DNA from: Squalus acanthias | Lineage: Eukaryota | Reading direction: 5' to 3' | Assembly: GCA_030390025.1 (NCBI GenBank) | Contig: CM059432.1 | Coordinates: 39,372,001-39,436,000, forward strand | Length of the DNA: 64,000 bases | In this document: piece by piece, positions 9,980-61,052 of the stretch | Position numbering within the stretch: the stretch's first letter is position 1 | How the letters are laid out: each line of letters begins with the position of its first letter | Notes under the pieces: generated by a model | What the model was told of the DNA's origin: nothing | Seen by the model: only the letters and a program-made list of their open reading frames with translations | The model's database searches: none | Position numbers and translations under genes: made by a program

Positions 9980-12764
9980 GGCCGGAATTTTGGAGGCGGG
10001 TCATAGGTTAAATTTGCAATGATTGACAGCGGGTTCCGAACCCGCCGTGATCCTGCCTCCACACATCTTTCCCAAGTGTCGGGTCTCCGATTTGCAAACG
10101 GACCCGACACCAAGCGGCGGGAAAGGGATTAAAGGCACTTAACTGCCTATTAAGTGGTACTTTAGAGCTTTTTTCACAGGGTTTTTAGATTTTCCAGTTT
10201 CTGGGTCGGGTTTCACGACGTTCCAACAACACGCCAGGTAAGTGAGGCGTGACCACCAGCGAGCTGGAGACTTCACAGCTGCAACTGCAGTGTAAAAGCT
10301 GCACTCTCAAATCATGTCATTTAGAAATCTGTGAGGTTGGTGATTGAATGATTTGGGGGGCATATTCTGTGTTTAGGCTGCAAGTATATGTTGTGCACAA
10401 TAGATCCACTGTAACCTGCATTGCTGGATTTTAAAGGTGCACTTACCCTAAACTGTGCCCCCTCAAATTGTCATCACACAGATGGCAATGATGCCAAACC
10501 TTCGTTCTACATCAATTTATTACAATATTGGCAAAGAACAGAAACTTTACAAATAAATCTATCATAACACCCAAGTGAGAACCCTTGTGATTAGTAACGT
10601 GTCATCTTCCTCTTACACGTGCTTCTACATTGTGACACCCCTGTGGCTTCAGCATATGTGGAGGCAGCCTGCTCACTTCCCTGCTGCTCCTGCTTAGACG
10701 CCTTTGGCGGCCGTCATCTGGTTTTGCGAGTCTTGGAGGGTCCCGCCAAAGTCTGCTCCTCCTGTGGCTGTGCAGGGGCGGACTCGGCCATCTCTGTTGG
10801 CTCAGGCAGATGGGGCTCTGACCGAGGGCTCAGCAGTGGCAAGGGAGTGTGAGCCCTTGGAGAGGAGCCCCCACTTCCTTGTGCTCGAACACCACCGTCC
10901 CTCTCATGAGTCACCCGCACTTCACAGCTAGCAAGTTGCTGGAGAGCACCTTGCTGCACATTGGTGGGGCCATGTGGACCCATCTCTGTACTGACAGTCC
11001 TCTTAACCGGGACGTCCATGTACCTCTGGTTCCTCTCCACGATAGATGGCTTTCTATCCTCCATAGCTGGCCATCTATCTAGAAGAGCCACCATGTTGGC
11101 TTGTGTCTGGCGAGTTAGGTCCTTCATGGAGGTTGCCATTCCTTCCATAGCGGCACCTAGATTGTCCATAGCGTTCACCATGGCATTGCTAATGTTTAAG
11201 ATGGACTCCTCCATTCTCTGCACACTCGCAGTTACCATGGAAGCAAACCCACTCAGAGCCTCCTGCACTTGTTCCTGAAGCTCCAGCACCGCTCTCTTTC
11301 TGGATGGCCCCAGAGGCTCAACATTTAAATGCAGCTGAGCAGAGCTGGAAGAGCCCTGCGTCCTCTGACGAGGACTCCACTGCTGTATCTGTTTCCAACA
11401 TCTGCTCCTGCTCGCGTGTGAGCTGTGATACACCAGGTGACAACACTACTCTATCTCGCAAAAAACCCACCGAGGTGTGCGTCTCTGCGCTGGTGCTGGG
11501 TGCGCTGAATGCTGGTGACGCTGCTCCCTCAGAGGCTGGTGGTTCCTCTGAGGAGTGCTCCTGCTCTTCCTCCTGGACAGTGGGGAGCAGGGCTCTCGAT
11601 GGTCCTGTGGGGGAGTAAAAGCATGAGTTAGACAAGTGAAATGTATGTTGCAGACACATCCCATTGTGCAGATGCTTAGCACTCAATCTCTATAAACATC
11701 ATCTCCCATATTAGTCACTCATGAATGCTAAATCAGAGGGTTGGAAATCAATTCTGTCACCAGCTTGCTCTTCTACGCCCGTCTCTCCATCCCCCACTTC
11801 CAGCTCCTCTGCACCTCCAACGATCTCCAGGCTGCCTCCTCAGCGCTCGTTAGGTGCGCCAGCGATGCTGGGCCTCCGCCTGTCCTCCCCCTCTCCCTTT
11901 TATTGTGAGCTCTCTTCTCCTGTAATGAGGGACACAAGTGGAGTTTGAGAGAGATTGATGGAGTGTGTGTAAAGAATGGATGACATAGATCTTTAGAGGG
12001 AGACTATGAAGGAGTGAGGTGCACAAACCAAGTTCCCTCCCTGTGCGTTGTTAGTTGTTGGCATTGCATAAGAGTGTGAGTGATGCATAGTAAGATGGTG
12101 ACATGATTCTGTACAGAGAAAGAGAGGGATGGGTGAGGGTGCAAGGGATGTTAGAGTGAGTTGGGATGTGCAGGGGAAGGATGCCAATGCAGAGTGATGG
12201 GGATGAGAAGAGATGGGAGGCAGATGGAAGGTAAGTGTGATGTTATACTCACTTTTGCTGATCGCAACAGATCATTAAACCTCTTACGACACTGCACCCA
12301 GGTGCATATGTAGACTGACCTCGAACTGACCTCCTCAGCAATTTGCAGCCAAGCTGCCTTGGTATGCTGAGGAGGCCTTCTCCTTCCGTCTCCAGGGAAG
12401 AGAACCTCCTTACGTCCTCTTACACCCTCCACAAGACCATGGAGGGAGTCCTCATCGAAGCGGGGAGCAGCCTTAGGTTTTTGCACTGCCATACCTGCAG
12501 CAGCCAGCACTTCAGGGAACAAAATGGAAATGAATCTGCAGAGGAGACATGGCCCCCTTAAATAATCAGTTCAACATCGCTTCATCAGACGCAAGCAGTA
12601 GACCCGCACCCAGCAATTGCCTTGAAGAACCTGCACATCGGCCTTAACGAGGCCAATCAACGCTAAATTTCAACAGAGCAGGGCGGGTCGAACCGGGAGC
12701 AGGTCCGGAACCCACCGACCAGTGGACCCGCCACCATCCCGCCTCCAGGCACAAAATCGCGGCC
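9980..12764 (-). mobile_element. Harbinger derivative carrying only the Myb/SANT gene
   Basis: TIR GGCCGGAATTTTG / CAAAATCGCGGCC; TSD TGA/TTA; GGAGGCGGG-type subterminal motifs; no transposase core recognisable. Confidence 0.85.
10714..12492 (-). pseudogene. Three-exon Harbinger Myb/SANT-like (MSANTD/trihelix) gene; exons ~12492-12253, 11919-11761, 11604-10714
   Basis: Exon 1 reads KAAPRFDEDSLHGLVEGV...AAWLQIAEEVSS...TWVQCRKRFNDL, with GT-AG junctions. Exon 2 begins EKRAHNKRER..TGGG. Exon 3 is acidic then coiled-coil-like. Frameshifts in exons 2 and 3. Confidence 0.8.
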
Positions 12765-17000: not shown

Positions 17001-19250
17001 GGCAATAACGGAGACCTGGCTCAAAAAAGGGAGGATTGGGTATTAAATATTCCTGGTTATAAAGTGTTCAGGAAAGATAGGGAAGGAAAGATAGGAGGTG
17101 GTGTGGCAGTATTGGTCAAGGAGAATGTTACAGTGCTGGAGAGGGAGGATGTCCTGGAGGAGTCAAGGACAGAATCTATGTGGCTAGAGTTAAGAAATAA
17201 TAGAGGTGCCATTACACTACTAGGTGTATTCTATAGACCACCGAATAGTGGGAAAGATATGAAGGAGCAAATTTGCAGAGGAATTACAGAGAGGTGCAAG
17301 AACTATAGAGTAGTAATAATGGGAACTTCAACTATCGTAATATAGACTGGGATCATAATAATGTAAAGGGCAGAGAAGGGGAAGAATTTCTGAAGTGTGT
17401 TCAGGAGAACTTTCTTGATCAATATGAATCTGGCCTGACGAGGGAGAAGGCATTGCTGGATCTGGTTCTGGGAAATGAGATAGGTCAAGTGGAGCAAGTG
17501 TCAGTAGGTGAACATTAAGGAACAGTGATCATAATATCATAAGGTTCAGATTAGCTATGGAAAAGGACAGGGAGCAATCTAGAGCAAGAATGTTTAACTG
17601 GCGGAAGACCAATTTCAGTGGGATGAGAATGGATCTGGCCCGGTTAAACTGGAATCAAAGATTGGCAGGCAAAACTGTAATGGAACAATGGGCTGCCTTT
17701 AAAGAGGAAATAGTTCAGGTACAATTGAGGTACATTCCCACTAGGGGGAAAGGCAGGGCAACTAAAGTCAGGGCTCCCTGGATGCCGAAAGAGATAGAGA
17801 ATAAGATGAAACAGAAAAAGAGTGCATAAGACAGATGTCAGGTTGCAAATACATCTGAGAATCAGGCTATATATAGAAAGGTCAGATGAGAAGTGAAAAA
17901 GAAAGTAAGAGGGACAAAGAGAGGGTATGAGAATAGAATGGCAGCTAACATAAAAGGTAATCCAAAAGTCTTCTATAGGCATATAAATAGTAAGAGGGTA
18001 GTAAGAGGAGGGGCGGGGCCAATTAGGGACCAAAAAGGAGACCTACACATGGAGGCAGAGGGGATGACTGAAGTACTAAATGAGTACTTTGCATCTATCT
18101 TCACCGAGGAAGAGGATGCTGCCATAGACATAGTGAAGGAGGAGGTAGTGGAGATACTTGATAGGATAAAAATTGATAAAGAGGAGGTACTAGAAAGGCT
18201 GCCTGTACTTAAAGTAGATAAACACCAGGAGTGGATGGAATGCATCCTAGGATGCTGAGGGAGGAAATCACGGAGGTACTGCCCACAATATTCCAATCCT
18301 CCTTAGATATGGGGGTGGTGCCAGAGGACTGGAAAATTGCAAATGTTACACCATTGTTCAAAAAAGGGTGTAAAGATAAACTCAGCCACTACAGGCCAGT
18401 CAGTTTGACGTCGGTAGTGGGGAAGCTTTTAGAAACAGTACTCAGGGACAAAATTAACAGTCACTTGGACAAGTGTGGATTAATTAAGGAAAGCCAGCAC
18501 GGATTTGTTAAAGGCAAATCGTGTTTAACTAACTTGATTGAGTTCTTTGATGAGGTAACAGAGAGGGTTGATGAGGGTAATGCAGTTGACGTAGTGTACA
18601 TGGATTTCCAAAAGGCGTTCGACAAAGTGCCACATAATAGGCTTGCCAGCAAACTTGAAGCCCATGGAATAAAAGGGATAGTGGCAGCATGGATACGGAA
18701 TTGGCTAAGTGATAGGAAACAGAGAGTAGTGGTGAACGGTTGTTTTTCGGACTGGAGGAAGGTATACAGTGGTGTTCCCCAGGGGTCGGTTCTAGGACCA
18801 CTGCTTTTCTTGATATATATTAATGACTTGGACGTGGGTGTACAGGGCACAATTTCAAAATTTGCAGACGACACAAAACTTGGAAGTATAGTGAACAGTG
18901 AGGAGGAGAGTGATAGACTTCAGAAAGACCTTGGGTTTGATGTTAACCAGCCCTGAGGAGGCGGGTTTCGAGGCATGTCAGCTGGTAAAATCGGAAAAAA
19001 TGGCTTCAGACACCCAACCGCCTCCATCCCGCCCCCACGCGATTTTCCTGAGTGTTCGTTCAGCTGCTCCCAAACTGACCCGACTCCAACCGATGGGACA
19101 GGTAGTTAAGGCAGTTAAGTGCCTGTTAACTGCCTTGATAATCCTATTTTGACAGATATTTTCCATTTTCCTGCCTCTGGCTCCTGTTTCCCGTCTTGTC
19201 AGAAACAGTCCTACTGCAAGGAGATGAGTTGGTGGAGGACATGATCTGTA

Positions 19251-21755
19251 GACGGTGATTTTCCCACTGGAGGTGAGATGGAGGCGGGTTTCAATTTGGG
19301 TGGGTTTGAAACTCGCCTCCACTGATGGGAAAATCGCAAAATTTTGAAACCTATGATTGTCCACTTGATTTCAGAGGTGTGGGATGCCCTTGGTCAATTA
19401 GTGTTTTGGGACTGAAACTCGCCTCTGTTGACAACACTTTTCCAGTCTGATTTTATAGCTTCTTGCTCCCTTGGCTCACTCCACAGCATTTCTGCATCTC
19501 CTGCACCACCTCCAACATCTTTTGAGAAACCTATGTCCAATTCCAAGGCAAGGGCCTACCCGAGGCTCTCAGATGAGGCGCTGCAAATGTTGTTTGAGGG
19601 GGTGAGAGCTGGCATGGAGGTGCTCTTCCACTCATCTCAGAGGAAGAGGCCTGCCAAAGAAACCAAGGCTGTGAGGGTACAGCTGACAAGGGATAGAACC
19701 TCCAGATCTGTGTGCAGATTGGGAGACTGTTTCTGTGTATTGATGAAATGCCACCCCTGTTGGAAAGCATTAAAATGATTTGAAGCCAAAATGTTGGCGT
19801 TATGCCATCTGTTCTTTCGCCTTAGGAAGCTCCACATTGCGGGCACCGCCACACTTGCGTTGTCTGGTTGGTGGCCTGAGTGAAAGGAGGCCAGAGAGTC
19901 ATGTCCATTGTCAATGAAGTCCTAGGATGGAGCCAAGGACATGTGCAAACTTGGGCAACCTATGCAAATCTGGCCATGATAAGTTCATCCCTTGCATCCC
20001 TGGCAGCCATGTGCTCGCGTGCTGCCACTGCCGCTGGTCGATACACCGGCGCTCTGACCTCCTCCTGCTCCTCCTCCTCCTGCTCCTCCTCCTCCTCCAG
20101 CTCCTCCTCCTCAGCCTCCTCCTCTTCATCTGAGGAGGGCTGGAACTGAGCCGTTTGCTCATCAGGAAGCTGCAAGCCACGACGCTGTGCGATGTTATGC
20201 AGTGTACAGCAGACCACGACCATTCTGGAGACCCTGTATGGTGTATACTGCAGGGCTCCACCTGATTGGTCAAGGCAACGGAAGCGCATCTTCAACAACC
20301 CAATGGTCTGCTCTATGATGGACCTGGTCGAAGTGTGGCTGGCGTTGTAGCGCTCTTGAGCCTCGTTAGCTGACCTCCTGATCGGCGTCATTAGCCACTT
20401 CTTCAGGGGATAGCCTTTGTCATCAAGGAGCCATCCATTAAGTTGGTTTGGTGGATTGAAAAGCGGAGGAACATTAGAGTGCCGCAGGATGAAAGAGTCA
20501 TGGCAATTTCCACAGAACTTGGCGCAAACACAAGAACTCCTTCTTGTGGTTACACACCAGCTGAACGTTGAGGGAGTGGAAGCCCTTTCGGTTGACAAAG
20601 AAAGCTGGGTTGTGATGGGGTGCCCTAAGGGCCACATGTGTGCAATCTATGACGCCCTGCACCATTGGCATGCCTGCCATATATGCGAATCCAACCGAAC
20701 GGGCGGTTATACTTGCTTGATCCCTTGTGAACTGGATGTAATTGTGGGCCTTAGCAAAAGGGGCATCGGTAACCTGGGTGATGCAACTGTGGGTGTCTGA
20801 CTGGGAGATGCCGCTGATGTCTGCTGATGATCCCTGGAAGGAGCCTGAGGCAAAGAAGTTGAGTGCGGTGGTGACTTTGACAGCCACTGGTAAGGGGTGT
20901 CCATCCGTTCCTCTGGGCACCAGGTCTTGCTGCAGCAGGCCGCAGATCTCTCGGACAACCTCTCGCGAAAGTCTCAACCTCCTTTGGCACTGCTGCTCAC
21001 TCATGTTGAGGTAGCTCATCCTTTGTCTGTAAACCCTCTGTGGGGGTTATCTCCTGCGGCGAGGTGCCTCGATGCGCTGGTGCCTTCTGCCCTGTGCACA
21101 TCAGGTAGCTGAGCAGGAGGTTGGGGCTACTGCTGATGTTGCTGCTGAGCTGCCTGGTTCTGCTGCTGCCCTGGATGGTCCTCATCCTCATCTGAGGTCC
21201 ATGGTGAAAGAAAATGAATGGTTCCCATGCTGCTTGTAGATGCCTCCTTTGGGGAAGCGCTCATTGCAAGCGGGGAGAGGGTCTTCCAAGGAGGTCCCAC
21301 AGTTGATGGAGTCAAGCTGCAGCACCTCCGACTTCCGAAGGCCTTCTAAAAGTGCTCAGAGACCTTTTAAAGCCAAGGTCTGGCACCTGCAAGTAATCCT
21401 TGCTGCAATAAACGATGTCTTGTTAGACCTGCAGCAGTGAGGAGGCCACCCACGAGTCAACCCGCCAGGTTTACCTGGCGTGGTTCAGGAGGTGCGTGGA
21501 GCATGCCGAAATGCTGGGAAATTCACGAGGGCCTCTCAAAATAGGTTTAGAGAGGCCCTTAACAAGCATTTAAGGTAGTTAATTAGCGCAATGGCCAGCT
21601 GGAGGCGGGAGCGTTTCCCGATCTCCAAAACCGTCACCGGCAAAATCCCATGGAGGCGGGTTGGAGGCAGGGTCCGAACCCGACCTCTTTGAATCTAATT
21701 TTACCGCCTTTCCCGCCTCCAAACCCGCCTCCTCCGACGTCAGAAAATTGCCCCC
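19251..21755 (-). mobile_element. Inner Harbinger transposon with full-length but disrupted transposase and a truncated convergent Myb gene
   Basis: Termini GACGGTGATTTTC / GAAAATTGCCCCC; flanks GTA/ATA; GGAGGCGGGTTT subterminal repeats; Myb start MSNSKARAYPRLSDEALQML at ~19533 (+). Confidence 0.75.
19960..21228 (-). pseudogene. PIF/Harbinger (HARBI1-like) DDE transposase pseudogene
   Basis: Motifs [70 protein letters not shown]; stop at ~21127 and a frameshift near 20530. Confidence 0.92.
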
Positions 21756-21983
21756 ATAGTCATTATTGGTGCAGAACTTTAAAAGCGCTCCTTTAAAATG
21801 GCTGGCATTCAAATGCAACAATTTTGTTGTTGGAGGTTTGGGATAAGATTTTGAAAATCTACTGACCTTGTAACTGGTCAAGCTGACACACATCTGCTGG
21901 TTGAACTGATTGGGAATAATTTCAGGCCACTTTGAGTGTGCGCTTGCAAGCTTCTTGCCTCAACTGAAATCTATAACAAAGGG

Positions 21984-22247
21984 ATGGGAACCATTTACAT
22001 TCTCTCATCCTGGACGCCAGATTCGGAGGAAGAGCAGCGCGGCTTAGTGCTGCCGGATGAACAAGTGGCTCAACACACAGCCTCCTTGGAGGAAGATGAA
22101 GAGGACGAGGAAGAGGACGAGGAGGAGGACGAGGAGGAGGATGGGGAGTGATGCCTTGCAGGGCCGGATGTGGCCAATCCAGCAGCAGGCGACCACATTG
22201 CTGGCCGTCAGGCAAGGAATGCACTCATCCATGCCAGATTCGCGTAA
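21984..22247 (+). pseudogene. Harbinger transposase with the whole catalytic core deleted (N-terminus fused in frame to C-terminus)
   Basis: MGTIYILSSWTPDSEEEQ matches the start, and RGLVLPDEQ..EEE..HIAGRQARNALIHARFA* matches the end, of the 19960-21228 transposase; one internal TGA at 22149. Confidence 0.85.
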
Positions 22248-22429
22248 GCTTACGCTTCAACCACAGGTGGCTGGCACATGGAGATGAATATAAGTCCGAC
22301 ATTCTCAAAACCCCAGGCATCATCTGTCCAATAAATGGTGGTTTGCGCTCAGTGTCACCACCAACATTGTACATGGAAATCACCCTGAGCCCTCACTCTT
22401 GAACTTCCATTTCCCAGAACACAGAGGCC

Positions 22430-22673
22430 ACACTTTAGGTGATCTCAGTAGATCATTAAACCTTTTTCCACACTGAACCCATGTGTGTCTGCACACAGAC
22501 CTCGAGCTCACCTCCTCAGCAATTTGCAGCCAAGCTGCCTTGGTTTGTTGAGGAGGCATCCTCCTTCCATTTCCAGGGAAGAGGAGCTCCTGACGTCCTC
22601 TAACTCCCTCAACAAGAGCATGGAGGGAGCCCTCATTGAACCTGGGTGCATCCTTAGTTTTTGGGGCTGCCAT
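22430..22673 (-). pseudogene. Harbinger Myb/SANT exon 1 remnant
   Basis: MAAPKTKDAPRFNEGSLHALVEGV...WVQCGKRFNDLLRSPK, closely similar to 12253-12492. Confidence 0.85.
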
Positions 22674-24096
22674 TCCTGCAGCTCCCAGCACCTGTAAGAG
22701 AAAAAAGCATTAATATCACTAAGCCAATGATTGGAATAAATCTGACATCTTTTTCATTTCATAGTCAGGTTATAAATTGATATATACAAAAAATCATTAA
22801 AATCTTTCTGGAAAAATATGACCAGCAATTTCATTCATTAAATTTTGTTCAGAACAGACGCTGTCGACTCCCCTTTCTATATGTTGCAGCACCAATCCAT
22901 TCCATTGACATTATTCCCAAAGGGGACATGGCCCCTTTAAATTTTCTTTCAAACAACGTGTCATCAGACGTGAGAAATTGACAGCCTCCAAGCAATTGCC
23001 TGGAGGGACCCGCACATCGGCCGTAACGAGGCCAATCAACAGAAATTCGTAAGTTCTGGGAGGCGGCTGCCGGGAGCGGGTCGGAAAGCCTCTGAGCAGC
23101 GGACCCGCACTTAGGCCGCCTCCATTAGTAAAATCGCGGCCCTAGACAGGCTGGTGAAATGGGCAGACACGTGGCAGATGAAATTTAGCGCAGAAAAGTG
23201 TGACGTGATACATTTTGGTAGAAAGAATGAGAAGAAGACATATAAACTAAATGCTACAATCCTGAAGGGAACAGAACAGAAAGACCTGGGGGTATGTGTG
23301 CACAAATCGTTGAAGGTGGAGGGCAGGTTGAGAAAGCAGTTAAAAAGGCTTACGGGACCCTGGGCTTCATAAATAGAGGTATAGAATACAAAAGCAAGGA
23401 AGTTACAATGAACCTTTATAAAACACTGGCTCGGCCCCAACTGGAGTACTGTGTCCAATTCTGGGCACCACACTTTAGGAAGGATGTGAAGGCCTTAGAG
23501 AAGGTGCAGAAAAGATTTACAAGAATGATTCCAGGAATGAGGGACTTCAGTTACATTGATAGACTGGAGAAGCTGGGGTTGTTCTCCTTGGAGGAGAGAA
23601 GATTGAGAGGAGATTTGATTGAGGTATTCAAAATCATGAGGGGTCTGGACAGAGTAGAAAGAGAGAAGCTGTTCCCATTGGCGGGAAGGGTCGAGAACCA
23701 GAGGACACAGATTTAAAGTGATTGGCAAAAGAACCAAAGGCGATGTAAGAAAAACTTTTTTTACGCAACGAGTGGTTATGATCTGGAATGCACTGCCTGA
23801 AAGGGTGGTGGAGGCAGATTCAATCATGGCTTTCAAAAGGGAGTTGGATAAATATCTGAAGGAAAGAAATTTGCAGGGCTACGGGGAAAGGGCAGGGGAG
23901 TGGGACTAGCTGAAGTGCTCTTGCAGAGAGCCGGCACAGGCTCGACGGGCTGAATAGCCTTCTTCCATGCTGTAACCATTCTATGATTCTATGATTCTAC
24001 TTCATCAATGACCTTCCCTCCATCATAAGGTCAGAAGTGGGGCTATTTGCTGATAATTTCACAGTGTTCGGTTCCTTTCACAATTCCTAAGATAAT

Positions 24097-39813: not shown

Positions 39814-41139
39814 ATAAATACAAGTTGTTGTTGTTGTTGTTGCTGTGGAAAAGATATATCAGCTGACCAAGGTGTAGCTCTTTCACTGGGTGGCAGGGTT
39901 TCCTTTGGTGTAGAGCATTGTAGCTGGCACCCCACATGTGGGCATCAAGGCTTTTCATAGCAATGGTCCACATGAATGAAAAGGGTTTGCACTTAATTAA
40001 TGTTCAGTTGGTATCTGTCACTATGCATGAGCAGCCATCATCCAGGCATGATGCCTTTACTGTGCAGCTGTCCACAGTACCTGCATTATTTGAAGGAGAA
40101 GAAACGTGGGGTGGTTGTGTTTTAGGGGAAAAGGGCTTTCTTCTGCATCCATGGCTGTTAACCCCACCAAGAAATCCATTAACAGCAGAGGAGCACCCAG
40201 CATATGCATCTGCACCTGTGCCTTTGCTGTCAGCTCCACTTTCATGCAGTTTTGGCACAATGAAAGAGTACGTGCAAAAATGGAACGGTTGTGTACAATA
40301 TTTCGGATAGTACCTCCCGAGGTGCTGTCATTCCCAATTTAGGTTTGAGCCGTAGAAAATTGAGCAAAATTTGCTTGTGCAATTTTCTTTGGTTTCCTCC
40401 TGAAACGTAATTTGGAGCCAACTACAAGGGACTTGAGGTGACTCTGCCAGAGATTTCTCACAGTATAGTTGCCATTTGTGCTTTTACTGAAGGGTAACCT
40501 TCAGCTCAAATAGGGCCACCCTCCTTGGTGTACCTCCCACAGCAAGATTTCCAAACCTTCAGCGTTTAACATACAAGTGCTACCTACTGACTCCATTGCA
40601 CCATTGTGAAGAAATAATCAACTTATCTGTCACTGCTACAACTTCTCTTTTTAGTACAAGTAGCAGCCCTTTAAGAATGGCTACCTTGCCAGATTGTACA
40701 TCCTGTAGCCAAGTGTGGCACAGGGTAAGCACTCTGAGCAAGAGTTTCATGTACTGATAGCCTATCAAATTAGGGGAAGGATAACCCAATAGAGAATTCA
40801 GCTGGGTCTTTTTTCTGAACTGCCAGCGCAGATTAAGACTGTGCCATGAGCCAGCTCAAGCCCACTTTCAGAAAATTAGGGCCTATAACTCAAAAGACTA
40901 CCAAATGCGCTAAAATCATGAAGTGTGAGACTCTCACCACAGTAAATTTCACTTTGAAAATATCATGAATTGACTTGTTTCCTTTGAAGCTAAGTTGGTG
41001 ACCATGCATTTGGTTGTGATTGAGGTATTGCGTGTCGTCTTATTTACTGTGGTTTCTATGAGCTTCAGTACGACTGACAGTAAGTATATAGGTCTGCAAA
41101 AATCAAAGTTATTTTTAATCTTTTTTTGTGGACAAGCAA

Positions 41140-45801: not shown

Positions 45802-47421
45802 CAAGAAGCTGATTTATAATGATCAGGTTATAAAGTATGCTGCAATTAAAAATGTTAAATGTAAATTCATACGGTGATGCATTGTACTGATGAAATCCTT
45901 TTACATGCAACAGAATTAACATCAGATTTATTGGGGGCAATTGATTACAAGGGAAGAAAGTGGAATAATATAAATAAGTATAATACAGTACTGAAATACC
46001 ATTACATTTCTTGCCTGAGATCAGGAGTTCCTGATGCCAGAAAGCTCTCTACTGGCAGAGAATGTCATAGTATTCAGTCAGCGGTAATTTTTCCAGGATA
46101 ATGTGGCTTCAGGTTGACTTGCAAACTGTTCCAGAGTTCTAGACCCATATGAAATGATTGCCACTACTGTGAGACATATGAAATTCCTCCCCATAATCGG
46201 TGCTCACAGAGTTCCTTTTGAGGCAAGGAAAACTTAAATGGCAGATCTCGTGTTGGGCAAAAATAGTGAAGTTATGCATAGATTTATATCTTTTCAGATA
46301 CAGATGAACACCAAATATTCCCCCAGGCTTTTCTTCCTCTGTTAGTGTCAGTGATGGGACTAAAGATTAAAAAAATAGAACAAAACATAGTATGTTGAAT
46401 AAGAATTCCTGGTAGCTGATGCTGTTTGTTTTAACATGGGTGGTTTCAATTAAGAACAAACAGTGCCCTCTATAGTTTCAAATGTACTGCAATGCTGCTT
46501 TCACTTCCACTGTATGTTTTAAAGTAATAGCTAAGAAGCATAGAAATTGTGCTGTTTTGTTCAATCACTTAGTTTGACAAAAATCCCCAACCATTTTAAA
46601 ACGCTTAGCTGAGGAATGCAGATTACAAGTAGGCAAACAGAGGATAATCCATGGTTAGCTGTGGAATCCTATTCTGAGTAATGAGTCACAAAAAAGTCTA
46701 GTAAGTGTATTGGAAATCTTATCCCAAACCATGGATGTATGTATGGTTTACATATGTTAAGCCCTAAATCCAAAGTATGAAAACACAGATATGTGAGCAT
46801 TCATTTTCTACATTTTTGGATTAGGGCTCAGGGTTTAGTTTAAGGCATATATTGTCTCTTGAGTGCTCAGTTCACAGCCAATTCATACATTGAGATGTGG
46901 AACTTGACAGAGACGGTTTTAAGAAGCAATATAGCAAACTGACTATGAATAATTTGACGCAATTAATTTATTGATGGCCAATTCATAAAATGTCATATTG
47001 TTAAATATTTTAATAATCAGTACTTCTGATTTTAAAACAGTTTCTTCAATACATTATTTACTATTAGCTATGTAGCTCGATCACAATCATAGTTCTATGT
47101 TTAAACGCTTCGCATTTATAGCACATAATTTCATTAAATAATTCTGAACACAATGGCCTAGAAATTGGACTGTGACACAAAAGTTGCCGGTGTCACCGTG
47201 GCCTCGGGATAACGGCCGCTGAAAATGGTCGCGTCAGTAGGAAAGAAAAATTCACGCTGGGGTCTAAAGATTTTTAGCCCAGCGCTAAACTCACCGTGTA
47301 ACGCCCTCCTGGTGGCGTTAGTGCAGGCATCAGTAGCGAAGTTGGCATCCAGAAGCGGCGTTCCATCTTTCAACAGCCTCTGGAAGCGAGGCAGTGAGTT
47401 CGCTAGACGTTGTGGGACATT

Positions 47422-48151
47422 GGGACCGTATTTTCCGATCGGAGGCTTCCCGCGTGCGGAGGCCTCCAATCTGGAAAAAATCTACGCACTTACCTGAGGG
47501 CTCCCGAGGTACATATAGTTCCGATCCTGGGCCTCTCCAACTCCAATAGCGCAGGGCCTACGTATCCCAGAGGCGCACGCAGTTCGCAAGCGTCCCTGGG
47601 ATCACGTGGGCCATGGGGAGCCAATCAAAGAAGGGAATCTCCCTTCATACACTTGACAGATAGACCTGTCAAATATATGAATGGAGATCGCCCCAAAAAC
47701 ACTTCAAAACATTAAATAAATTTTAAAAAAACATCACATTTTTAAAATTAGTTGAAATTGCAATAAATTAAATATTTTAAACAAAAATTAAATTTTTTGA
47801 AAAAAATAATTAAAGTTTTCTACAGGGCTAAAAATAAACTTACCTTTTTAAAAGTATTTTTAAATGATAAATGAATGAAAAAAAATATTTTTTTTACTTT
47901 TTTCAAATCTTTTACCAGGTGTAAGATTTCTAAGGGTTTTCTGCGGGCGGAGGTTCTCCAGAAAGCGGAACTATCTGCCCGCGGAGGCCCTTCTCTAGGG
48001 CAGGCGTCCGATCTGTCAAGAGCATTCTTGACAGATCGGAAATGCCGGTTTTCAGCGCATGCGCTTGGCACGCCTGAAATCGGCATTTCCGATGTCTCTA
48101 TGGGTGTGTACACAGCGCGTACACACCTGTAGGGATCGGAATATCCAGCCC
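47422..48151 (-). mobile_element. Nested Harbinger-type MITE (24097-24862 family, reverse orientation)
   Basis: Termini GGGACCGTATTTTCCGATC / GATCGGAATATCCAGCCC; TSD ATT/ATT. Confidence 0.85.
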
Positions 48152-49444
48152 ATTAAAAGGGCAATGCATTAAAAGTGCCTTCTGAACTGATAATATAAAA
48201 ATGCCTTATGAAAAAAAAATTAACATTAAAAAGAATTCCCAAGTGGGAGTCTTCAGCTCTTAAAGCTGAATTCCCTTCCGCACCTCAAAAAATGGGAGAA
48301 ATGTATCAGCACTATCACAAATGGCTCAGCAAGCCAGGGAAGGGGCACCCAGGGTCTCGTACGCAGCACTCCAGCGTTGTGCAGGTGGTCAACACTGCAA
48401 GAGAGGTCCTCTACCCACAGGGGCCAGGAGGCCCTCGAGAAAAAATGACCACATCAGTGTTGCCCCCCCCCCCCACCATCTGGCTTCAGTGCCCAAAGAA
48501 GCTTCATGACCTCAGACCACTGGTCAGGGTCAGTGAATGCAACTTCAAAAGCCGTCTCCTACCAACTGAATCACTAGCCTCGCACACTTCTCAATGCATG
48601 ACTCCCCCTGCCAATCACTCACCTAACAACAATCTGTACCAATCACAAGGCACACCTCCCATTCCTAGCTTCACCTCACCCTCTTGGAGGAGACGGTGCT
48701 GGCCATTCTTGGCAGGGGTATGGCTGAGCCATTGGCCAGCGGCGGGGCAGAATGGATACAAGATGCTGCTATCCTCATACGTTATCCTGCTTCTAGCATA
48801 CACCTCTTGCTTTCCCGCCCTCCCCGCACCACAACTCCACCTTTGTGCCTTCCTCATTTCACACACTCAAGAAATGCAGCCTGCCCAGCCAGTGGTTCAC
48901 CAAGAAGAGGGAGAGGAGAGTGAAGAAGAAGAGACATCGTCACTCAATTTCACACTCCCAACCACCAGCTCCTAAAGATCGACCAACAAGGCCATTTGCA
49001 GTGTCCCCACTGAAAGTCTTCCACCAGCCATGCCGCAGCCACTGGGGTAGCACTGCGTGACATCAGTAGGATAGGCAAAGGCACACACAAGACAGCCACT
49101 AAGAGAATGCACAAGCGTGATTAGTTTATTTCTTGATGTCATATTGGATGGATAGATATATAAAGTTGGATTGGAAAGTTTGTTTTGCAGTGGTTTTTAT
49201 TTCAGCATCGTGGCCAAGAGGACGCTGTGATGGTCAGTAACAGAGGGAAGGTAAGGTGTGGGGAAAATGTTGAAAGGACAATTGAGGTTTTGGTCACTGG
49301 TAGTGCAGACAGATGATTCCATCCCGGATATCCCTGCCAGAAAGGGGTTGTCTGGGTTGCATCCTTCCTTCTGCTTCCTCCTCTTTGGCTTCTTCCTCTT
49401 CTGTGTCTTCCTCTTCCCTCTGCGAATGGATGCTGTAAATCTGA

Positions 49445-49567
49445 AACAAAAGCATAAAATGCTGGAAATACTCAGCAGGTCAGGTAATATCTTGACCTGA
49501 GACGTGGACTCTGTTTCTCTCTCCACGGATGTTGCCTGACCTGCTGAGTATTTGCAGCATTTTCTGT
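49445..49567. mobile_element. Short foldback insertion, probably Penelope-derived
   Basis: Inverted arms AAAATGCTGGAAATACTCAGCAGGTCAGG / CCTGACCTGCTGAGTATTTGCAGCATTTT; absent from sister Harbinger copies. Confidence 0.6.
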
Positions 49568-50169
49568 CATCTCAGAGGCCTTCCTTTACTATCCAAGGCC
49601 TTGTAAATATCCATCAGCACTACCTGCACACTTAAAAAAACTTTTAGCATGTATTGCAGCAAGCCACTACTTCAATAAAATCAAAAAAATCTTGCCCAAA
49701 AGCTTAAATACATACTTAACTGAAAGATATGTGTGTCCTTTTAAGAGGTGCTGACAACGCCTCTGTGAGTCTGCTGAACGCTGGATTTTCATGGCGAGCT
49801 TAAGGCCCAGCGCTGAACTCAGTGCTAGGGTCCATGTTCGCCGAGCTGCCGGACCTCAGAAAATGGCGGAAGCCGCGGGACCTGCCACCAGCTGCCGAAA
49901 GAGCAGCGGTCACCCTCTTTTCACTACAGTTTGCCGGTAACGGATGGTTTAAAGCACCCGAATTTTTAGTCCAATATTTCTATTGAAGGCTGTAACTCAA
50001 TGTTCAGTCTATTGACCTATACCATTCAGTGTAGTTTTTCAATTTTTTCTTATTTTAAACTATTAAGTGAAATCCCATTTTTTTAATACAGGTGCGTTAT
50101 ATTGTAATGTTTCAGCTTATTTGCTTCAGATTAGGCAGTAGAATGTCATATAGCAACCTGTTTAATTAA

Positions 50170-51890: not shown

Positions 51891-52199
51891 TTGAAAAGGG
51901 GAAACTGAACTAATAGTACCAGAAACACAGTATGAAGTTTGGGAAAGATAGGCTAGATGGACCAATCGTCTTCTTCTGTCCAAGACATTACTGTTTATGT
52001 TACTATATTACTGTTGTCCCTCATCATACTGAAGGTCCTTGTCCAGCACTGGCCCATGTGTTGTCCCTGTTACAAAGCAAATTTATGCAACATACCGCAA
52101 ACCACTATCCTATGGGACACTGTGGGCCGTATTGCAGGATGCCACCAGACCTGTCCAGGCAGCAAAATCATTGCATGAAGGCTACTTAATGAGGGCTCT

Positions 52200-52980
52200 A
52201 GTGGAGCCAAAGACTTGATCGTAGCACAGTTCAGCCGCCGAGTATGAGTTCCTGAGAGGAGTCACGATCCAAGTGTACAGGTGATAGCCCTTGTCCCCAC
52301 GTAGCCAGCCTCTTACTTGCTGTGCAGGGGCAGAGAGTGAGAGATGAGGATTGGTACAAGATAAAACCGTTATGGCAGATGGCTAGAAAGCAGGTATGAT
52401 ATGCTGCTGCTAATCACACACCAATTGTACAATCATGGAGTGATGGAGTGGAAGCCCTTACGATTCATGAAGGCAGTGGGTTACTCTGAAGGATCCCACA
52501 GGTCAATGTGGGTGCAGTCAATGAGGCCCTGGACTTGCAGGAATCCTGCAATGTGTGCTAACTTCAGAACCCTATTCTGCTGCTTCTGGAGGTCCATGCA
52601 GAAAGTAATGAAAGTGTTGCTTTAGCAAACATGACATCAGTCACCTGTTTAATGTAAGCCTGGATTGCAGACTGACTGATGTTGATGACATTCCCTGTGA
52701 CAGCCTGGAAGTTGCCTAAGGCAAAGAAGTTCAGGGCTGCCTTGTTGCCGGAGGAGACACAGCTGTGCGACGGCCTCCCTAGAGAAGCACAGCCTTCTTA
52801 TGCACTGCTCATCTGAGAAGTGCAGGTATGTTATCCTAGGCCTATACACCTAGATTCCTGCAAGCAAGCCTCCTTCTATTTTTTTCTCCCTGGAGCTGCA
52901 GCTCTGTGTGTTCCTTCCTCCTGAGACTCTTCCTCCTCCTCTTCCACTAGCCAGAGTGGAATTCCCAGAAGGATTAACCT
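52200..52980 (-). pseudogene. Ancient Harbinger transposase remnant
   Basis: YRPRITYLHFSDEQCIRRLCFSREAV; ALNFFA; QGLIDCTH; FMNRKGFHS; multiple stops and frameshifts. Confidence 0.8.
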
Positions 52981-53365: not shown

Positions 53366-56300
53366 GGCCGGGAAATTCGATAAGGCCCGAAAACAGGCGG
53401 GGCCGCCGCGGGGCGAGATTTGTTCCCGCCCGTTTAGAAAGTGCAGGCAGCGCGTTAATTTGGTGCTGCCTGCTAATTTAAATGATTTTAGCGGACAGCC
53501 CAGCAACTTTGGTGCTGCTTCAGGCTGTGCGTTCAGCAGGAGGCCCAAGGTCACGTCGTTGTAGCAAGCTGCATTTTCTTAAAGCAAGGCTGTCAGTTTT
53601 GAAAGCAGTCTTGAGCCCTCAAAGGTGAACTGCCTTCTGAAAAAAAATAAAACATTGAATCAAATCAAAAATAGACAGTCTGCTGCTCTTAAAGCAGAAC
53701 TGCCTTCTGCATGTAAAAAAAAATGGTAAAAGTGCTTCAGCACTAATATAAATGGCTCAACAGGCCAGGGAAAGAGCACCCAGCGTCTCAAATGTAGCAC
53801 TCAAGCTTTGTGCAGGGGGTCAATACTGGAAGAGAGGTCCTCTACACACAGGGGGCCAGGAGGCCCTCCAGGAAAAAGGATGCTGGACCAGATCGCCGAG
53901 GCCGTCACTGCTAGCAGGACTTAGCTCCAGTGCCCAAAAAAGTTTCATGACCTCAGATGAGTAGTTAAGGTCAGTGAATGCATCTTCAAAAGCTGTCTCC
54001 TACCAACTGCACCACTAGCCTCACAGACTGCTCAATGCACGACACCCCCCATCACTCACCTACCAAATCTCTACCAAACACGAAGCACACCTCCCATTCC
54101 TAGCTTCACCCCAGCCCTTGGAGCAGATGGTGCTGGCCATTCTTGGCAGGGGCATGGCTGAACCCTTGGCCAGCGGCAGGGCTGAACGAATACAAGATGC
54201 CGGTATCCTCATACATTATCCTCCTTCTCACATCCCACTTCCCCTTCATCCCACAATATGTGCTGATTTACAATCTGATCATGGTGTAAGCATGCACTTC
54301 TTGCTTCCCCTCCTCCCCTCACCACAACCCTACCCTTGTGCCGTCCTCATTTCAGACACGCAAGAAATCCAGCCTGCCCAGCCAGTGGTTGACCAAGATA
54401 AGGGAGAGGAGATTGAAGAAGAAGAAGAAACACCGTCACTCGATTTGACACTCCCAGCCACCAGCTCCTCGAGGTAGGCCTGCAAGGCCATCTGCAGTAT
54501 CCCCCACTGAAGGTCAGCAGCCTTCCACCAGCCATGCTGCAGCTATTGGGGTAGCACTGTGTAGGAGCACTAGGATAGACAATGGCAGATGCAAGACAGT
54601 CACTAAGAGAATGCACAAGGCTGATTAGTTGATTTTTTGATATAATATTGGATAAAGTTGCTTTGTGTGGCTTTTATTTCATCATTGTGGCCAAGAGGGC
54701 GCTGCGATTGTCTGTAACAGAGGGAAGGCAAGGTGTGGGACAAATGCTAAAAGGTTGTGTACACTAGTACTGCTGCCAGATGATACGATCTTGGATATCC
54801 CAGCCAGAAAGGGGCTGTCTGGGTTGCCTCCAGCCTTCCACTTCCTCCCAAGGGGGACTGCATCTAGAGCCATAGAGTCATAGAGTTATACAGCACAGAA
54901 AGAGGCCCTTTGGCCCATCGTGTCCGCGCCGGCCATCAAGCCCTGTCTATTCTAATCCCATTTTCCAGCACTTGGTCTGTAGCCTTGTATGCTATGGTGT
55001 TTCAAGTGCTCATCTAAATGCTTCTTGAATGTTGTGAGGGTTCATGCCTCTACCACCCTTTCAGGCAGTGAGTTCCAGATTCTAACCACCCTCTGGGTGA
55101 AAAAGTTTTTCCTCAAATCCCCTCTAAACTTCCTGCCCCTTACCTTGAAACTATGCCCCCTGGTTATTGACCCCTCTACTAAGGGGAAAAGTTCCTTTCT
55201 ATCTACCCTATCTATGCTCCTCATAATTTTGTACACCTCAATCAGGTCCCCCTTCAGCCTTCTCTGCTCTAAGGAAAACAATCCCAGCCTGTCCAGTCTC
55301 TCTTCATAGCTGAAGCGCTCCAGCCCAGAAAACATCCTGGTGAATCTCCTCTGCACCCTCTCCAATGCAATCACATCCCTCCTATAATGTGGTGACCAGA
55401 ACTGCACACAGTATTCCAGCTGTGGCCTAACTAGCGTTTTGTACAGCTCCATCATAATCTCCCTGCTCTTATATTCTATGCCTCGGCTAATGAAGGCAAG
55501 TATCCCATATGCCTTTTTAACCATCTTATCTACCTGTCCAGCTGCCTTCAGGGATCTATGTACATGCACACCAAGGTCACTCTGATCCTCTGTCCTTCCT
55601 AGGATCCTACCATTCATTGTGTATTCCCTTGCCTTGTTTGTCCTCCCAAAATGCATCACCTCACACTTTTCAGGGTTAAATTCCATTTGCCACTGTTCTG
55701 CCAATCTAACCATCCCGTCTATATCGTCCTGTAGCCTGAGGCTTCCCTCCTCGCTATTTACCACTCCACCAATTTTCGTGTCATCTGCGAACTTACTGAT
55801 CATACCTCCTACATTCATATCTAAATCATTAATGTACACTACAAACAGCAAAGGACCCAGCACCGATCCCTGCGGTACACCACTGGACATAGGCTTCCAG
55901 TCACAAAAACAACCTTCGACCATCACCCTCTGCCTCCTGCCACTAAGCCAATTTTGGATCCAATGTGCCAAATTGCCCTGGATCCCATGGGCTCTTACCT
56001 TCTTGACCAGTCTCCCATGTGGGACTTTGTCAAAAGCCTTACTGAAGTCCATGTAGACTACATCAACTGCACTACCCTCATCCACACACCTAGTCACCCA
56101 CTCGAAAAATTCAATCAAATTGGTCAGACATGATCTCCCCCTGAAAAAGCCATGCTGACTATCCCTGATTAATCCCTGCCTCTCCAAGTGGAGACTAATT
56201 CTGTCCCTCAGAATTTTTTCCAATAATTTCCCTACCACTGATGTTAGGCTCACTGGCCTGTAATTCCCTGGTTTATTCCTACTACCCTTCTTGAACAATG

Positions 56301-56933
56301 GTACTACGTTAGCTGTTCTCCAGTCCTCTGGCACATCCCCTGTGGCCAGAGAGGTTCTGAAAATTTGTGTCAGAGCCCCTGCAATCTCCTCCCTTGCCTC
56401 ACACAGCAGCCTGGGATACATCCCATCAGGACTGTGTGCAAGTGATCTTCTCAGAGGCCTTTCTTTAACATCCAAAGCCTTGCAAGCATCCAGCAGCACT
56501 CCCTGCACACTTTAATATAATTTCAAATGTATTGCACTAAGCCACTACTCCAATAAAATGAAAAAAAAAACTCCAAAAGCTGAAATCGAAACTTACCTGA
56601 AAGATGTGTGTGTCCCTTTAAGAAGCGTTGACAGCGGCTCTGTACAACTGCTGCGTACACGGTTCTTCCGTGCGTGGTTAGGAGAGGGCGATATGGAGAG
56701 TGGCGACGTCCAAAATCGCAGTCATGCGTCAATTCAGGCGTTGCACGCCGATTGACATCACAATATACATATTTACATGGGAGAGGCGAGCGCAGGCAAT
56801 GGCAGCGCTGTCGACTTATCCAAAATGGCAGCCGCCATGTTTTGTGCTGGAAGTGCGCGGAAGCAAGGCGTCCACCACTTTTTCAACAAAACCAGCCTTA
56901 ACGGCTGGCGCTACAACCCCGAATCTTACGGCC
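53366..56933 (+). mobile_element. Harbinger deletion derivative, family 2, interrupted by a CR1
   Basis: TIR GGCCGGGAAATTCG / CGAATCTTACGGCC; TSD CCT/CCT; Myb remnants 53752-54477. Confidence 0.88.
54871..56428 (-). mobile_element. Young 5'-truncated CR1 (RT domain open)
   Basis: About 460 codons of uninterrupted RT-containing frame, with a premature stop at 55042; tail (GACTCTAT)n; very similar to 42047-44904. Confidence 0.95.
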
Positions 56934-58705: not shown

Positions 58706-61052
58706 GGCTGTGAAATTCGGCCCCTTAACGCCGGCTGTTAAGGCCGGTTGTGTCAAAAAATGGCGGCCACTTTGCTTCCGTCCACTTCTGGCGGGGCCGT
58801 GGCAGCCGCCATTCTGGGCAGGTCGGTAGCGCGGCCGTTGCCTGCATTTACCAGAAGAATGGTAATGAGGCAGATTGTGACTCAATCAGCGTGCAACGAT
58901 GGACTCCCCGCCAGCGCTACTTAAAGGGACACATGCAACTTTGAGGTAAGTTGCTTTTTGCTTTTGTACTGGTTCCTATACAGTTTTTGAGTAGCGGCTT
59001 GGTGTAAGACATTTTAAAAGTTTTTAGAGTGTGCAGTGAGTGCTGCTGAACATTTGCACGGCTTTGGCTCTTAAAGGCCTCCGAGAGCACAACTTGCTTG
59101 AGTGCCTGGGGGCTCTAGTTGCAGGCCCTCTTGAGCGACAGCATGACATGGAGATGGAGCAGAGGCAGCAATGGGAACAATTTGTTCGCAGAAGGAGGAG
59201 GAGAAGGAAGAGGAGGAGGAGAAAGAGGAAGAGGCAGAAGAAGAGGAAGCAGAGAGGAGGAAGTAGAAGAGGTGGAAGTGGAAGTGGAAGAGGAGAAAGT
59301 GGAAGGGAAGGAAGCGGAACAGAAGAAGGAGGAAGCAGAAGGAAGGATGCAACCCAGACAGCCCCTTTCTGGCCAGAATATCCGAGATTGAATCATCTGC
59401 CTGCGGTACCAGTGAACACAACCCCAATTCCCCTTTCAACATTTGTCCCACACCTTACCTTCCCTCTGTTACTGACCATCACAGCGTCCTCTTGGCCACA
59501 ATGCTGAAATAAAAGCCACCACAAAGCAAACGTTCCAATGCAACTTTATCCATATATGCATCCAATATTATATCAAAAAATCAACTAATCACCCTTGTGC
59601 ATTCTCTTAGTGACTGTCTTGCATCTGCCTTTGCCTATCCTAGAGCTCTTACGCAGTGCTACCCTAGTAGCTGCAGCATGGCTGGTGGAAGGCTGCTGGC
59701 TTTCAGTGGGAGAGAATGCAGATGGCCTTGCAGGCCAACCTCAAGGAGCTCTGGGCCGGAATTTGGACTGCACCACTCGGCAGGGGCGGTAGCAGTCTGG
59801 GCTGGCTGCCTGGGGGTGTGAAATTGAATGATATTGTTTCTTCTTCTTCTTCACTCTCCTCTCCTTCTTCTTGTTGACCCACTGGCTGGGCAGGCTGGAT
59901 TTCTTGGGTGTCTGAAATGAGAAAGGCACAAGGGTAGGGTTATGGTGAGGGGAGGGGGGGAAAGCAAGAGATGCATGCTTATACCATGTGCAGATTGTAA
60001 ATCAGAAGAGATTGTGGGATGAGGGGGAAGTGGGATGTGAGAAGAAGGATAACATATGAAGATACCAGCATCTTGTATTCCTTCAGCCCCACCACTGGCC
60101 ACGGGCTCAGCTATGCCGCTGCCAAGAATGGCCAGCACCGTCTCCTCCAAGGGGGTTAGGTGATGCAGGCATCGGTTAAGGTCTGCTGGCGCCGGTTATG
60201 CGCCACCTTTTCCTGCAAGAGAAAGAGAAGTGTGTCAGTGAGTGTGGTGTAATGTGTTTGGGTGATGTGGCTGACATGGCTGAATAACTGACAGTGCTCA
60301 AGCTGTGAGATGTGGGTGTGAGGCTTGCAACAGTGTAAGTGTGTGAGGGTGAGGTGAAGTTAGGAATGTGAGGTGTGCCTCCTGTTCGGTAGAGATTGTT
60401 GGTAGGTGAGTGATGGGGGTGTGTTGAATTGAGCAGCGAGTGAGGTTAGTGGTGCAGTTGGTAGGAGATGGCTTTTGAAGATGCATTCATTGACCTTGAC
60501 CACTCATCTGAGGTCATGAAACTTTTTTGGGCACTGGAGCCATGTCCTGGGGGGGCGACACTGCTTGCAGTGATGGCCTCGGTGATCTGGTCCCACATCC
60601 TTTTTACAGTGTTTCTGGAGGGCCTCCTGAACCCCTGTGGGTAGAGGACCTCTCTTTGAGTGTTCACCCTCTGCACAAAGGCCTCGAGTGCTGTGTCTGA
60701 GACCTTGGGTGCCCATTCCCTGGCTTGTTGAGTCATTTTAGTTTGTGCTGAAGCAGTTTTAAAATTTTTGATCACCAGAAGGCAGTTCACCTTTAAGAGA
60801 CACAGACTGCCTTTAAGAGGTGCAGGCTCACTTTAAGTAAAGCTAGCCTTGCGCAAACATCGTGAACTTCGGCCCCCTGCTGAGCGCACAGCCAGTCCGC
60901 AGCTCATTCAACGCTGGGCTGTGTGCTACAATCATGCAAAGTAGCAGGCAGCACAAATTTTACGTGCTGCCTGAACTCCTTTCAATGGGTGTGGGCAGAT
61001 CGTGCATTGCGATCCCTGTGCCCATTTTCAGGCCGAATCAAATTTCACCCCC
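58706..61052 (-). mobile_element. Harbinger deletion derivative, family 2, inverted relative to 53366-56933
   Basis: TIR GGCTGTGAAATT / AATTTCACCCCC (flanks ATT/AAC do not match); three-exon Myb on minus (60736-60495, 60212-60066, from 59911); core-deleted transposase on plus (~59090-59430). Confidence 0.85.

Follow-up and report, generated by a model that had tools for sequence, protein, structure and literature searches.

Background

In teleost Harbinger transposons such as Harbinger3_DR, a DDE_Tnp_4 transposase is accompanied by a Myb-like protein, which is described as binding the element ends and importing the transposase (PMC9179366, PMC9710019). An expansion of Myb-only Harbinger copies has already been published for Caenorhabditis inopinata, where 19 MADF-only, 5 DDE-only and a single copy with both are reported among 258, 14 of the 19 MADF loci being given as intact, several as expressed and one as having moved in the laboratory (PMC13668399). 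A Myb/SANT domain of Harbinger origin is also reported for NAIF1 and MSANTD1-4 (PMC9392472). Among cartilaginous fish, Harbinger is described as not found in the elephant shark, in an account that urges a check of the others (PMC9179366). Among the open-access papers listed, titles and abstracts name neither a vertebrate Myb-only Harbinger subfamily nor an elasmobranch Harbinger-derived Myb gene.

The locus analysed here, a 64,000-nucleotide stretch of Squalus acanthias DNA (the window), resembles Harbinger3_DR and other teleost Harbingers in combining a DDE_Tnp_4 transposase with a Myb-like protein, the host being an elasmobranch instead of zebrafish or another teleost. As in the published description of Harbinger-1M_cIno and Harbinger-2M_cIno (PMC13668399), internal deletion has produced Myb-bearing, DDE-bearing and gene-less derivatives, with the Myb type outnumbering the DDE type. 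Unlike Harbinger-1M_cIno, none of the six principal copies is intact, the copies are 10-30% diverged and the two-gene families appear abundant; the window is closer to the eroded state described for Harbinger-2M_cIno. Intact ends, 3-bp target site duplications (TSDs), internal deletions and post-deletion amplification are likewise shared with the PIF/Harbinger derivatives and Tourist-like MITEs of the mPing type treated in the same report, whereas the window copies are longer than such MITEs (1.7-2.8 kb minus nested inserts) and carry recognisable coding remnants. The Myb/SANT domain is of the kind found in NAIF1 and MSANTD1-4; in contrast to these, no window copy is a gene.

Results and discussion

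Six Harbinger derivatives without a DDE core

Six elements, termed E1 to E6, have mutually related terminal inverted repeats (TIRs) starting with GG at both ends. Family A comprises E1 (9980..12764, minus strand; TSD TGA/TTA), the outer element of E2 (18933..23141, no strand assigned, within a CR1 LINE; CTT/CTA) and E3 (29221..30970, plus; TAT/TAT), and family B comprises E4 (47155..49972, plus; AAT/AAT), E5 (53366..56933, plus; CCT/CCT) and E6 (58706..61052, minus; AAT/AAC, which requires the left end to be moved by one base). The 3-bp TSDs are thus exact in three of the elements and carry one mismatch in the other three. In profile and tblastn scans of the window, DDE sequence is confined to 19966-21034, 38529-40301 and 52052-52849, and the DDE core is absent from all six elements, five of which retain N- or C-terminal transposase remnants. 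The Myb/SANT second ORF (PF13873) was matched by Pfam in E1 and the outer E2 and was detected by profile or tblastn in the other four, and the DDE_Tnp_4 family (PF13359) is present in a nested element, with shark 'HARBI1-like' models as the best matches. The TIRs, the TSDs and the two protein families identify the six elements as real Harbinger derivatives that lack the DDE core.

The first-pass annotation had claimed six TIR-bounded elements from at least two families, all damaged and without the DDE core, and each of these points was borne out, an intact Myb ORF being found in none of the six. Its statement that Myb coding sequence is kept is accurate in so far as some remains in every copy; the whole gene survives only in E1, and the other five hold 17%, 16%, 39%, 41% and 50% of the 1407-nt ORF, with retained coordinates set by eye.

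The outer E2 retains a transposase C-tail (plus, 22032-22247) and Myb exon 1 (minus, 22673-22434), exons 2-3 being gone. The inner E2 nested within it (19249..21755, minus; PF13359, E 5.5e-23) has a near-complete DDE transposase gene at about 21200-19963, with frameshifts, and merely a 62-codon remnant of Myb exon 1 (plus, 19533-19718), and is a counter-example to the pattern of Myb kept and DDE lost. E3 holds exon 1 (29496-29720) with a 7-codon deletion and has likewise lost exons 2-3; its transposase N-terminus is joined to the C-terminus at about 30290 (minus strand), a fusion also present, identically spaced, at a locus in a sawshark. The sequence P0002 was rejected as an orthologue of this locus, its core matching the nested element and not the relic downstream of E3.

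The sample of six is selective, as it omits three DDE-bearing relics, one of them nested in the outer E2 and another hosting E5, and a seventh Myb remnant. The latter is a short piece of exon 1 (35620-35721; 16.8 bits, best reversed control 10.5) in a TIR-bounded relic (35323..36298, plus). In the DDE relic at 38529..40301 (plus; profile and tblastn scans), a palindromic repeat and a piece of LINE interrupt the sequence, and no Myb signal lies near it. The relic at 52052..52960 (minus; same scans), with an element end at about 56962, hosts E5, and the stretch from 49973 to 53365 is devoid of Myb signal. The window also has many MITEs that carry no gene and end in similar sequence, such as 2443-3330 and 5114-5951, which are 73% alike.

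Position as a probable explanation for retention of the Myb domain

Over ten coding relics, a small sample from a single window, 28% of the Myb and 31% of the transposase coding DNA is left, a transposase total that may be inflated by two DDE-only relics without a located Myb-side end, which are possible truncations. Counted by domain, the Myb domain persists in eight of the ten and the DDE core in three. Relics with only the Myb domain outnumber those with only the DDE core by 7:2 (binomial p 0.18), or 5:2 (p 0.45) when family B is collapsed. Loss of Myb as often as of transposase, an outcome that the first-pass annotation had named as counting against its hypothesis, is therefore found in bases (28% vs 31%) and not in the domain count. 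The excess by count is of the kind that the geometry of the element predicts: the transposase gene and the three-exon Myb gene are convergent, the first exon of the latter encodes the Myb domain and lies 270-510 bp in from one end, and the DDE core lies deeper within the other half. In a model of random internal deletion that spreads breakpoints evenly and borrows its element lengths from these very copies, the expected ratio of Myb-domain-only to DDE-only relics is 3.9-6.9 : 1, against the observed 7:2.

These copies are probably (at a probability of about 0.68) derivatives of abundant shark Harbinger families that became non-autonomous through deletion, and in which the Myb domain outlasts the DDE core because of its nearness to a protected end and not from a need for the protein. 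The copies bear one or more internal deletions, some common between copies. Such deletions would stem from slippage or from the repair of gaps, in many cases with a short direct repeat on either side, and a derivative with intact ends could then be mobilised in trans by full-length elements, amplifying whatever it happens to encode. Most of the Myb remnants could not yield a full-length protein.

At least part of exon 1 is kept in all eight Myb-bearing relics, whatever else went, as would be expected if exon 1 and its upstream region were retained as DNA, supplying for mobilisation the motifs bound in cis by the Myb protein, or the right spacing. This is very improbable, as gene-less MITEs with related ends have amplified in the same window, the Myb-side end of E4 differs from those of E5 and E6, and exon 1 is itself full of deletions.

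Family B was probably amplified after its Myb gene was broken

The Myb gene is broken in E4 (about 48320-49100) and E5 (about 53750-54610), and its exons in E6 (60736-60495, 60212-60056 and 59911-59603) carry frameshifts and stops. E4 and E5 have three Myb-breaking deletions in common: one of 8 nt that shifts the frame of exon 1, one of 194 nt that removes the exon-2 acceptor, and one of 54 nt in exon 3. A short exon 3 is common to all three copies; that of E6 is short by about 250 codons, E6 reading 218 aa vs 465-466 aa in relatives. A Pro is also common to the three, at a position where relatives have Arg in 26 of 30 motif instances (27 of the 64 relatives) and Pro in none. E6 lacks a segment of 73 nt that E4 and E5 both have; this was discarded as a shared derived character, as direct repeats flank the segment and E6 may simply have lost it.

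The alternative that each copy inserted at full length and decayed separately, the common gaps being due to gene conversion at a later time or to deletions that recurred where short repeats occur, draws on the short direct repeats flanking two of the three deletions common to E4 and E5, on an E4-E5 distance no smaller than that of either to E6, and on the unlike ends of E4 and E5. Three coincident deletions together with the common Pro substitution, and the recurrence of the E3 fusion, identically spaced, at a second locus, make it highly improbable. Amplification after deletion, as proposed by the first-pass annotation, is thus upheld by the breakpoints shared in family B and by E3, all in copies whose Myb gene is broken.

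In E6, the transposase N-terminus is joined to the acidic tail within a purine tract (plus, about 59097-59417). Recombination in such tracts could account for E6 but does not explain E3, and was rejected as the general route by which the DDE core is lost. Inserts overlie the transposase junction in E4 and E5, hiding any breakpoint common with E6: E4 has a hairpin repeat at about 49420-49570 in the former transposase position, besides a nested MITE (47423-48151), and in E5 a CR1 fragment (54864-56430) occupies that of the former transposase ORF.

Non-synonymous divergence in family B (dN 0.13-0.16) is comparable with intron divergence (0.11-0.15 raw, 0.12-0.17 corrected), and private changes (27 synonymous vs 63 non-synonymous) are near the neutral share. 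Intervals of pairwise omega include 1 in two of the three comparisons; the E4-E5 value lies below 1 (exon 1 0.36, CI 0.15-0.78; all codons 0.54, CI 0.33-0.90), which stems from raised dS, the off-frame control giving 0.53-0.86. As their amino-acid sites diverge at the intron rate, the family B copies are probably ordinary non-autonomous passengers and not helpers. The helper or repressor role suggested for Myb-only copies finds no support in five of the six, family B sharing Myb-breaking lesions and intron-like divergence and two family A copies having no exons 2-3. In family A, an omega of 0.20 (0.10-0.36) for exon 1 of E1 and E2 shows that the Myb domain was under selection, a signal that can be placed only in the time preceding the deletions, which differ between the two.

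E1 and a possible Myb-only subfamily

E1 sits inside a MITE (about 9943-13413), and its empty site is shown by a contig skipping from 9980 to 12773. The entire transposase ORF is lost, the 5' region being joined to the 3' UTR near 10423, and a complete three-exon Myb gene of about 468 codons is retained with two frameshifts and one stop. Exon 1 (12253..12492, minus; 80 codons, open) encodes the Myb/SANT domain (PF13873, E 3.4e-7); exon 2 (11762..11919, minus) has a one-base frameshift near 11830, where related contigs carry one extra base; and exon 3 (10591..11604, minus) has a frameshift near 11372 and a premature stop at 10716-10714. A sense codon occupies the stop position in nearly all related contigs (in X1, 75 contigs and 43754/43969 of the depth), indicating that the stop is private to E1.

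E1 is the sole listed copy still compatible with a split two-component system and could descend from a helper-type lineage; its source element may have been intact. It is possible, if doubtful, that E1 is a member of a genuine Myb-only subfamily whose Myb gene was still intact when its copies multiplied, acting as a helper in trans or as a repressor occupying the ends, roles also proposed for Harbinger-1M of C. inopinata. The helper would be the likelier of the two, since a full-length Myb protein binds the ends and also carries the transposase into the nucleus. The exact loss of the transposase ORF with the whole Myb gene kept and three lesions only, the end-to-end alignment to a Heptranchias protein that is intact at 465 aa (39% across 479 columns), the private stop, the exon-2 frame restored in some contigs and the Harbinger-1M precedent reported for C. 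inopinata (PMC13668399) all argue for it. Contigs unlike E1 reach the junction region from both sides in four of four runs, with summed depth alike on either side (X1 3685/3749/4239), such depth not being a copy number, and these hints suggest that E1 may represent a multi-copy subfamily with an open reading frame. Against this, the closest contig (10277-10453) extends 30 letters beyond 10423, and no contig listed passes the 31-letter bridging rule; contigs reading through the lesions may derive from full-length two-gene copies; and trans-acting genes, as public goods, would be under weak selection in a non-autonomous copy. RNA status was guessed for five runs (shares 0.04-0.08). No splice joint in the E1 Myb gene is among the contig joints listed (15 of 24), which says nothing on expression, and two contigs of guessed RNA origin traverse intron 2. 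Summed contig depth is much higher over exons 2-3 than over the ends of E1; depth cannot rank parts of the element and was hence unused.

Related proteins

A protein profile search returned 64 matches related to the E1 Myb protein. Word-based protein searches gave no matches for either exon 3 or exon 1 of E1, which is weak evidence, and a scan with the Myb alignment found no relatives among 208 pattern matches in metagenomes; no solved structure was found for P0043. Nested among these Myb proteins is a clade from sharks and rays (P0041, P0054, P0046, P0055, P0053 and P0045; support 100/99), with identities of 94-98.5% among four rays, 95% between whale and zebra shark and 55-63% between ray and shark. 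In this tree, which does not include NAIF1 or MSANTD sequences, the clade has the appearance of a gene domesticated at a later time out of the same Harbinger Myb lineage. The idea of a reservoir of new Myb genes is supported at the level of the lineage, by the conserved clade; the window copies, all with TIRs and lesions, lack the intact ORF and the freedom from TIRs that mark a domesticated MSANTD-like gene.

A wider scenario is unlikely on the present evidence: E1 would be a decayed vertebrate Myb-only Harbinger copy with a clean transposase loss, present in many copies in several sharks, its full Myb ORF selected as a trans helper, and such lineages would have seeded the undescribed shark-and-ray Myb clade.

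Conclusion

Harbingers are abundant in sharks, for which the reports found so far give only an absence from the elephant shark. Read as ordinary derivatives, these copies show that Myb sequence left in Harbinger relics has to be compared with a positional null before it is put down to selection, a caution that extends to the published case in nematodes. In vertebrates, domesticated Myb genes outnumber domesticated transposases. Should the subfamily of E1 have kept its Myb gene intact and under selection, it would provide a vertebrate case of a transposon split between two proteins and a plausible step on the path to domesticated Myb genes.

Organisation of the Harbinger derivatives

The window is densely packed with CR1-type LINEs, SINEs and Harbinger relics. 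Six elements bounded by terminal inverted repeats (TIRs) were assigned to family A (E1, 9980-12764; outer E2, 18933-23141; E3, 29221-30970) and family B (E4, 47155-49972; E5, 53366-56933; E6, 58706-61052). Their TIRs are related throughout, and their 3-bp duplications are exact in three elements and carry one mismatch in the other three. The transposase and Myb genes are convergent in all six, the Myb domain being exon 1, about 270-510 bp inside one element end. Outer E2 interrupts a CR1 ORF, and an E1 empty site in a MITE is seen in one contig that skips from 9980 to 12773. The top transposase matches are shark gene models annotated 'putative nuclease HARBI1'; of 30 Myb relatives checked for organism, 25 come from sharks or rays. 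Both lines point to an elasmobranch host. A search for DDE (catalytic core) sequence across the window found none in the six elements. The six are genuine, as the first-pass annotation had listed them; Myb is kept very unequally among them, and the DDE relics of the window had been omitted.

Harbinger-type elements are nested repeatedly: E1 in a MITE (9943-13413), inner in outer E2 (18933-23141), a MITE in E4 (47423-48151) and E5 about 30 bp inside the end of another element (53366-56962), with nesting also in CR1. Two gene-less elements of about 850-890 bp (2443-3330 and 5114-5951; 73% identical, G-run TIRs) retain, by eye, the first few Myb-like codons alone. Additional MITE-like elements, whose ends are related and whose cores are AT-rich, lie at 1232-1778, 24097-24866, 37339-37813 and 47423-48151. 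A CR1 ORF2 is open over 685 aa at 42184-44241 and is 89% identical to the CR1 fragment within E5, and about 1.7 kb of repeat-like sequence (61290-62990) differs from the remainder of the window.

Retention of Myb and transposase sequence

The Myb gene of E1 keeps each of its three exons, reads as 468 residues with X placed at breaks, and carries two frameshifts and one stop; aligned with an intact Heptranchias protein of 465 aa, it is 39% identical across 479 columns. Outer E2 and E3 retain exon 1 only, and exon 3 is short by about 250 codons in E4-E6. Absent from the earlier list are a near-complete DDE relic nested in outer E2 with just 62 Myb codons (19966-21034), a second DDE relic (38529-40301) that contains a near-perfect 225-bp palindrome (39589-39813; arms 99%), a third whose element end hosts E5 (52052-52849) and a seventh Myb remnant (35620-35721).

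Counting by domain favours Myb, with seven Myb-only and two DDE-only among the ten relics (p 0.18), but surviving coding DNA does not, at 28% for Myb and 31% for transposase over all relics that retain some coding sequence (gene-less MITEs excluded, spans curated by eye, the two DDE-only spans containing small gaps and having no located Myb-side end); the six listed elements give 44% and 13%. A crude simulation set against a small sample, in which elements undergo one or two internal deletions at random while the outermost 100-200 bp on either side are protected, predicts a Myb-only to DDE-only ratio of 3.9-6.9 to 1, and position therefore suffices to explain the observed 7:2.

Shared deletions and amplification

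E4 and E5 have in common an 8-nt exon-1 frameshift, a 194-nt deletion taking the exon-2 acceptor and a 54-nt exon-3 deletion; short repeats flank two of the three common deletions. A shortened exon 3 is common to E4, E5 and E6, as is a Pro within the QC-x-KK motif, at a position that is Arg in 26 of 30 instances (from 27 of 64 relatives) and Pro in none. In E3 the transposase N-terminus is joined to the C-terminus at about 30290, and residues 12-63 of the Pristiophorus gene model P0002 align through this point in the antisense frame (64%, same spacing), which places the same DDE-less form at another locus. These common breakpoints indicate that deleted forms amplified, as had been proposed, although family B did so once its Myb gene was already broken.

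Within a single purine tract at 59170-59330 in E6, the transposase passes directly from its N-terminal Arg run into its C-terminal acidic run, which suggests deletion between two similar tracts. The E4 interior is 80-88% like E5/E6, while its Myb-side end (47155-47420) is unlike 53366-53640 and 60780-61052; E4 is possibly a mosaic of two subfamilies.

The reading favoured here, at a probability of roughly two in three, is that internal deletion, probably during gap repair, produces non-autonomous copies that retain the element ends, would be mobilised in trans and then decay neutrally, Myb exon 1 persisting as a passenger presumably owing to its place near the element end. The anatomy, the shared deletions and the neutral amino-acid divergence of family B are direct observations.

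Both PMC9179366 and PMC9710019 state, with reference to Sinzelle 2008, that Harbinger mobility needs both proteins, Myb binding the ends and importing the transposase. E1-type elements might instead have been helpers with an intact Myb gene. E1 is partly present in at least 20 sequencing runs (8 studies, several organism labels). Contigs from four of 21 listed runs (14157, 3553, 407 and 739 contigs) cover all 30 bins of E1; nearly all contig depth has a sense codon at the E1 stop, and some contigs carry an extra base at the exon-2 frameshift, so that both lesions are private to this copy. At the E1 junction, where 5' homology to E3 stops near 10423, contigs differing from E1 arrive from both sides (10277-10453, 10285-10443, 10415-10587, 10420-10604), the best extending 30 letters past it, one fewer than the bridging threshold. 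These contigs hint at a multi-copy Myb-only subfamily; however, those with an open frame may derive from two-gene copies, and the helper role is judged unlikely. Slightly less likely still is the fuller proposal that E1 is a decayed copy of a vertebrate Myb-only Harbinger subfamily amplified in several sharks, its Myb ORF selected as a trans helper, with lineages of this kind having seeded a shark-and-ray Myb clade.

Selection on the Myb sequence

Pairwise omega in family B (about 170-180 codons) is 0.68 (0.42-1.18), 0.76 (0.45-1.31) and 0.54 (0.33-0.90), with off-frame controls of 0.53-0.86 and 1.16-1.36. As dN (0.13-0.16) equals intron divergence, values below 1 most likely reflect raised dS rather than constraint. 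The strongest result against this reading is E4-E5 exon 1 (0.36; 0.15-0.78). Exon 1 compared between E1 and E2 shows real constraint (0.20; 0.10-0.36), but what one of them lost complements what the other lost. The ancestor they share therefore carried both genes, and this constraint may date from autonomous life. The original observation is confirmed in part and its interpretation supported in part.

Related elements and proteins

In PMC13668399, an expansion of elements bearing only MADF, the Myb-type domain of C. inopinata Harbingers, is already reported alongside a single intact DDE gene, with trans supply termed hypothetical by its authors. No vertebrate Myb-only Harbinger subfamily was listed in the literature searched, though Repbase and supplements could contain such families.

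A profile built from five window Myb exons matched 64 proteins. Tandem Myb units, two or three per protein, occur among the shark gene models P0037, P0038 and P0057, which lie outside the window; one model joins a Harbinger Myb exon to a KLF10-like zinc-finger protein. These architectures may be annotation artefacts. A tree was built from 25 rows, comprising E1 and 24 selected relatives and cluster members but neither the remaining matches nor NAIF1/MSANTD. In it, 12 ray and shark rows (P0041, P0103, P0104, P0109, P0054, P0112, P0046, P0055, P0053, P0045, P0111 and P0051) group as one clade with 100/99 support, which sits within transposon-type Myb proteins. Identities are 94-98.5% within a set of four rays, 95% for whale shark against zebra shark and 55-63% when rays are compared with sharks. 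The suggestion that such elements are a reservoir of new Myb genes is thus favoured by a conserved clade within the same Myb lineage, though none of its members is a window copy; on sequence grounds, the clade looks like a probable elasmobranch domestication from this Harbinger Myb lineage, perhaps with paralogues.
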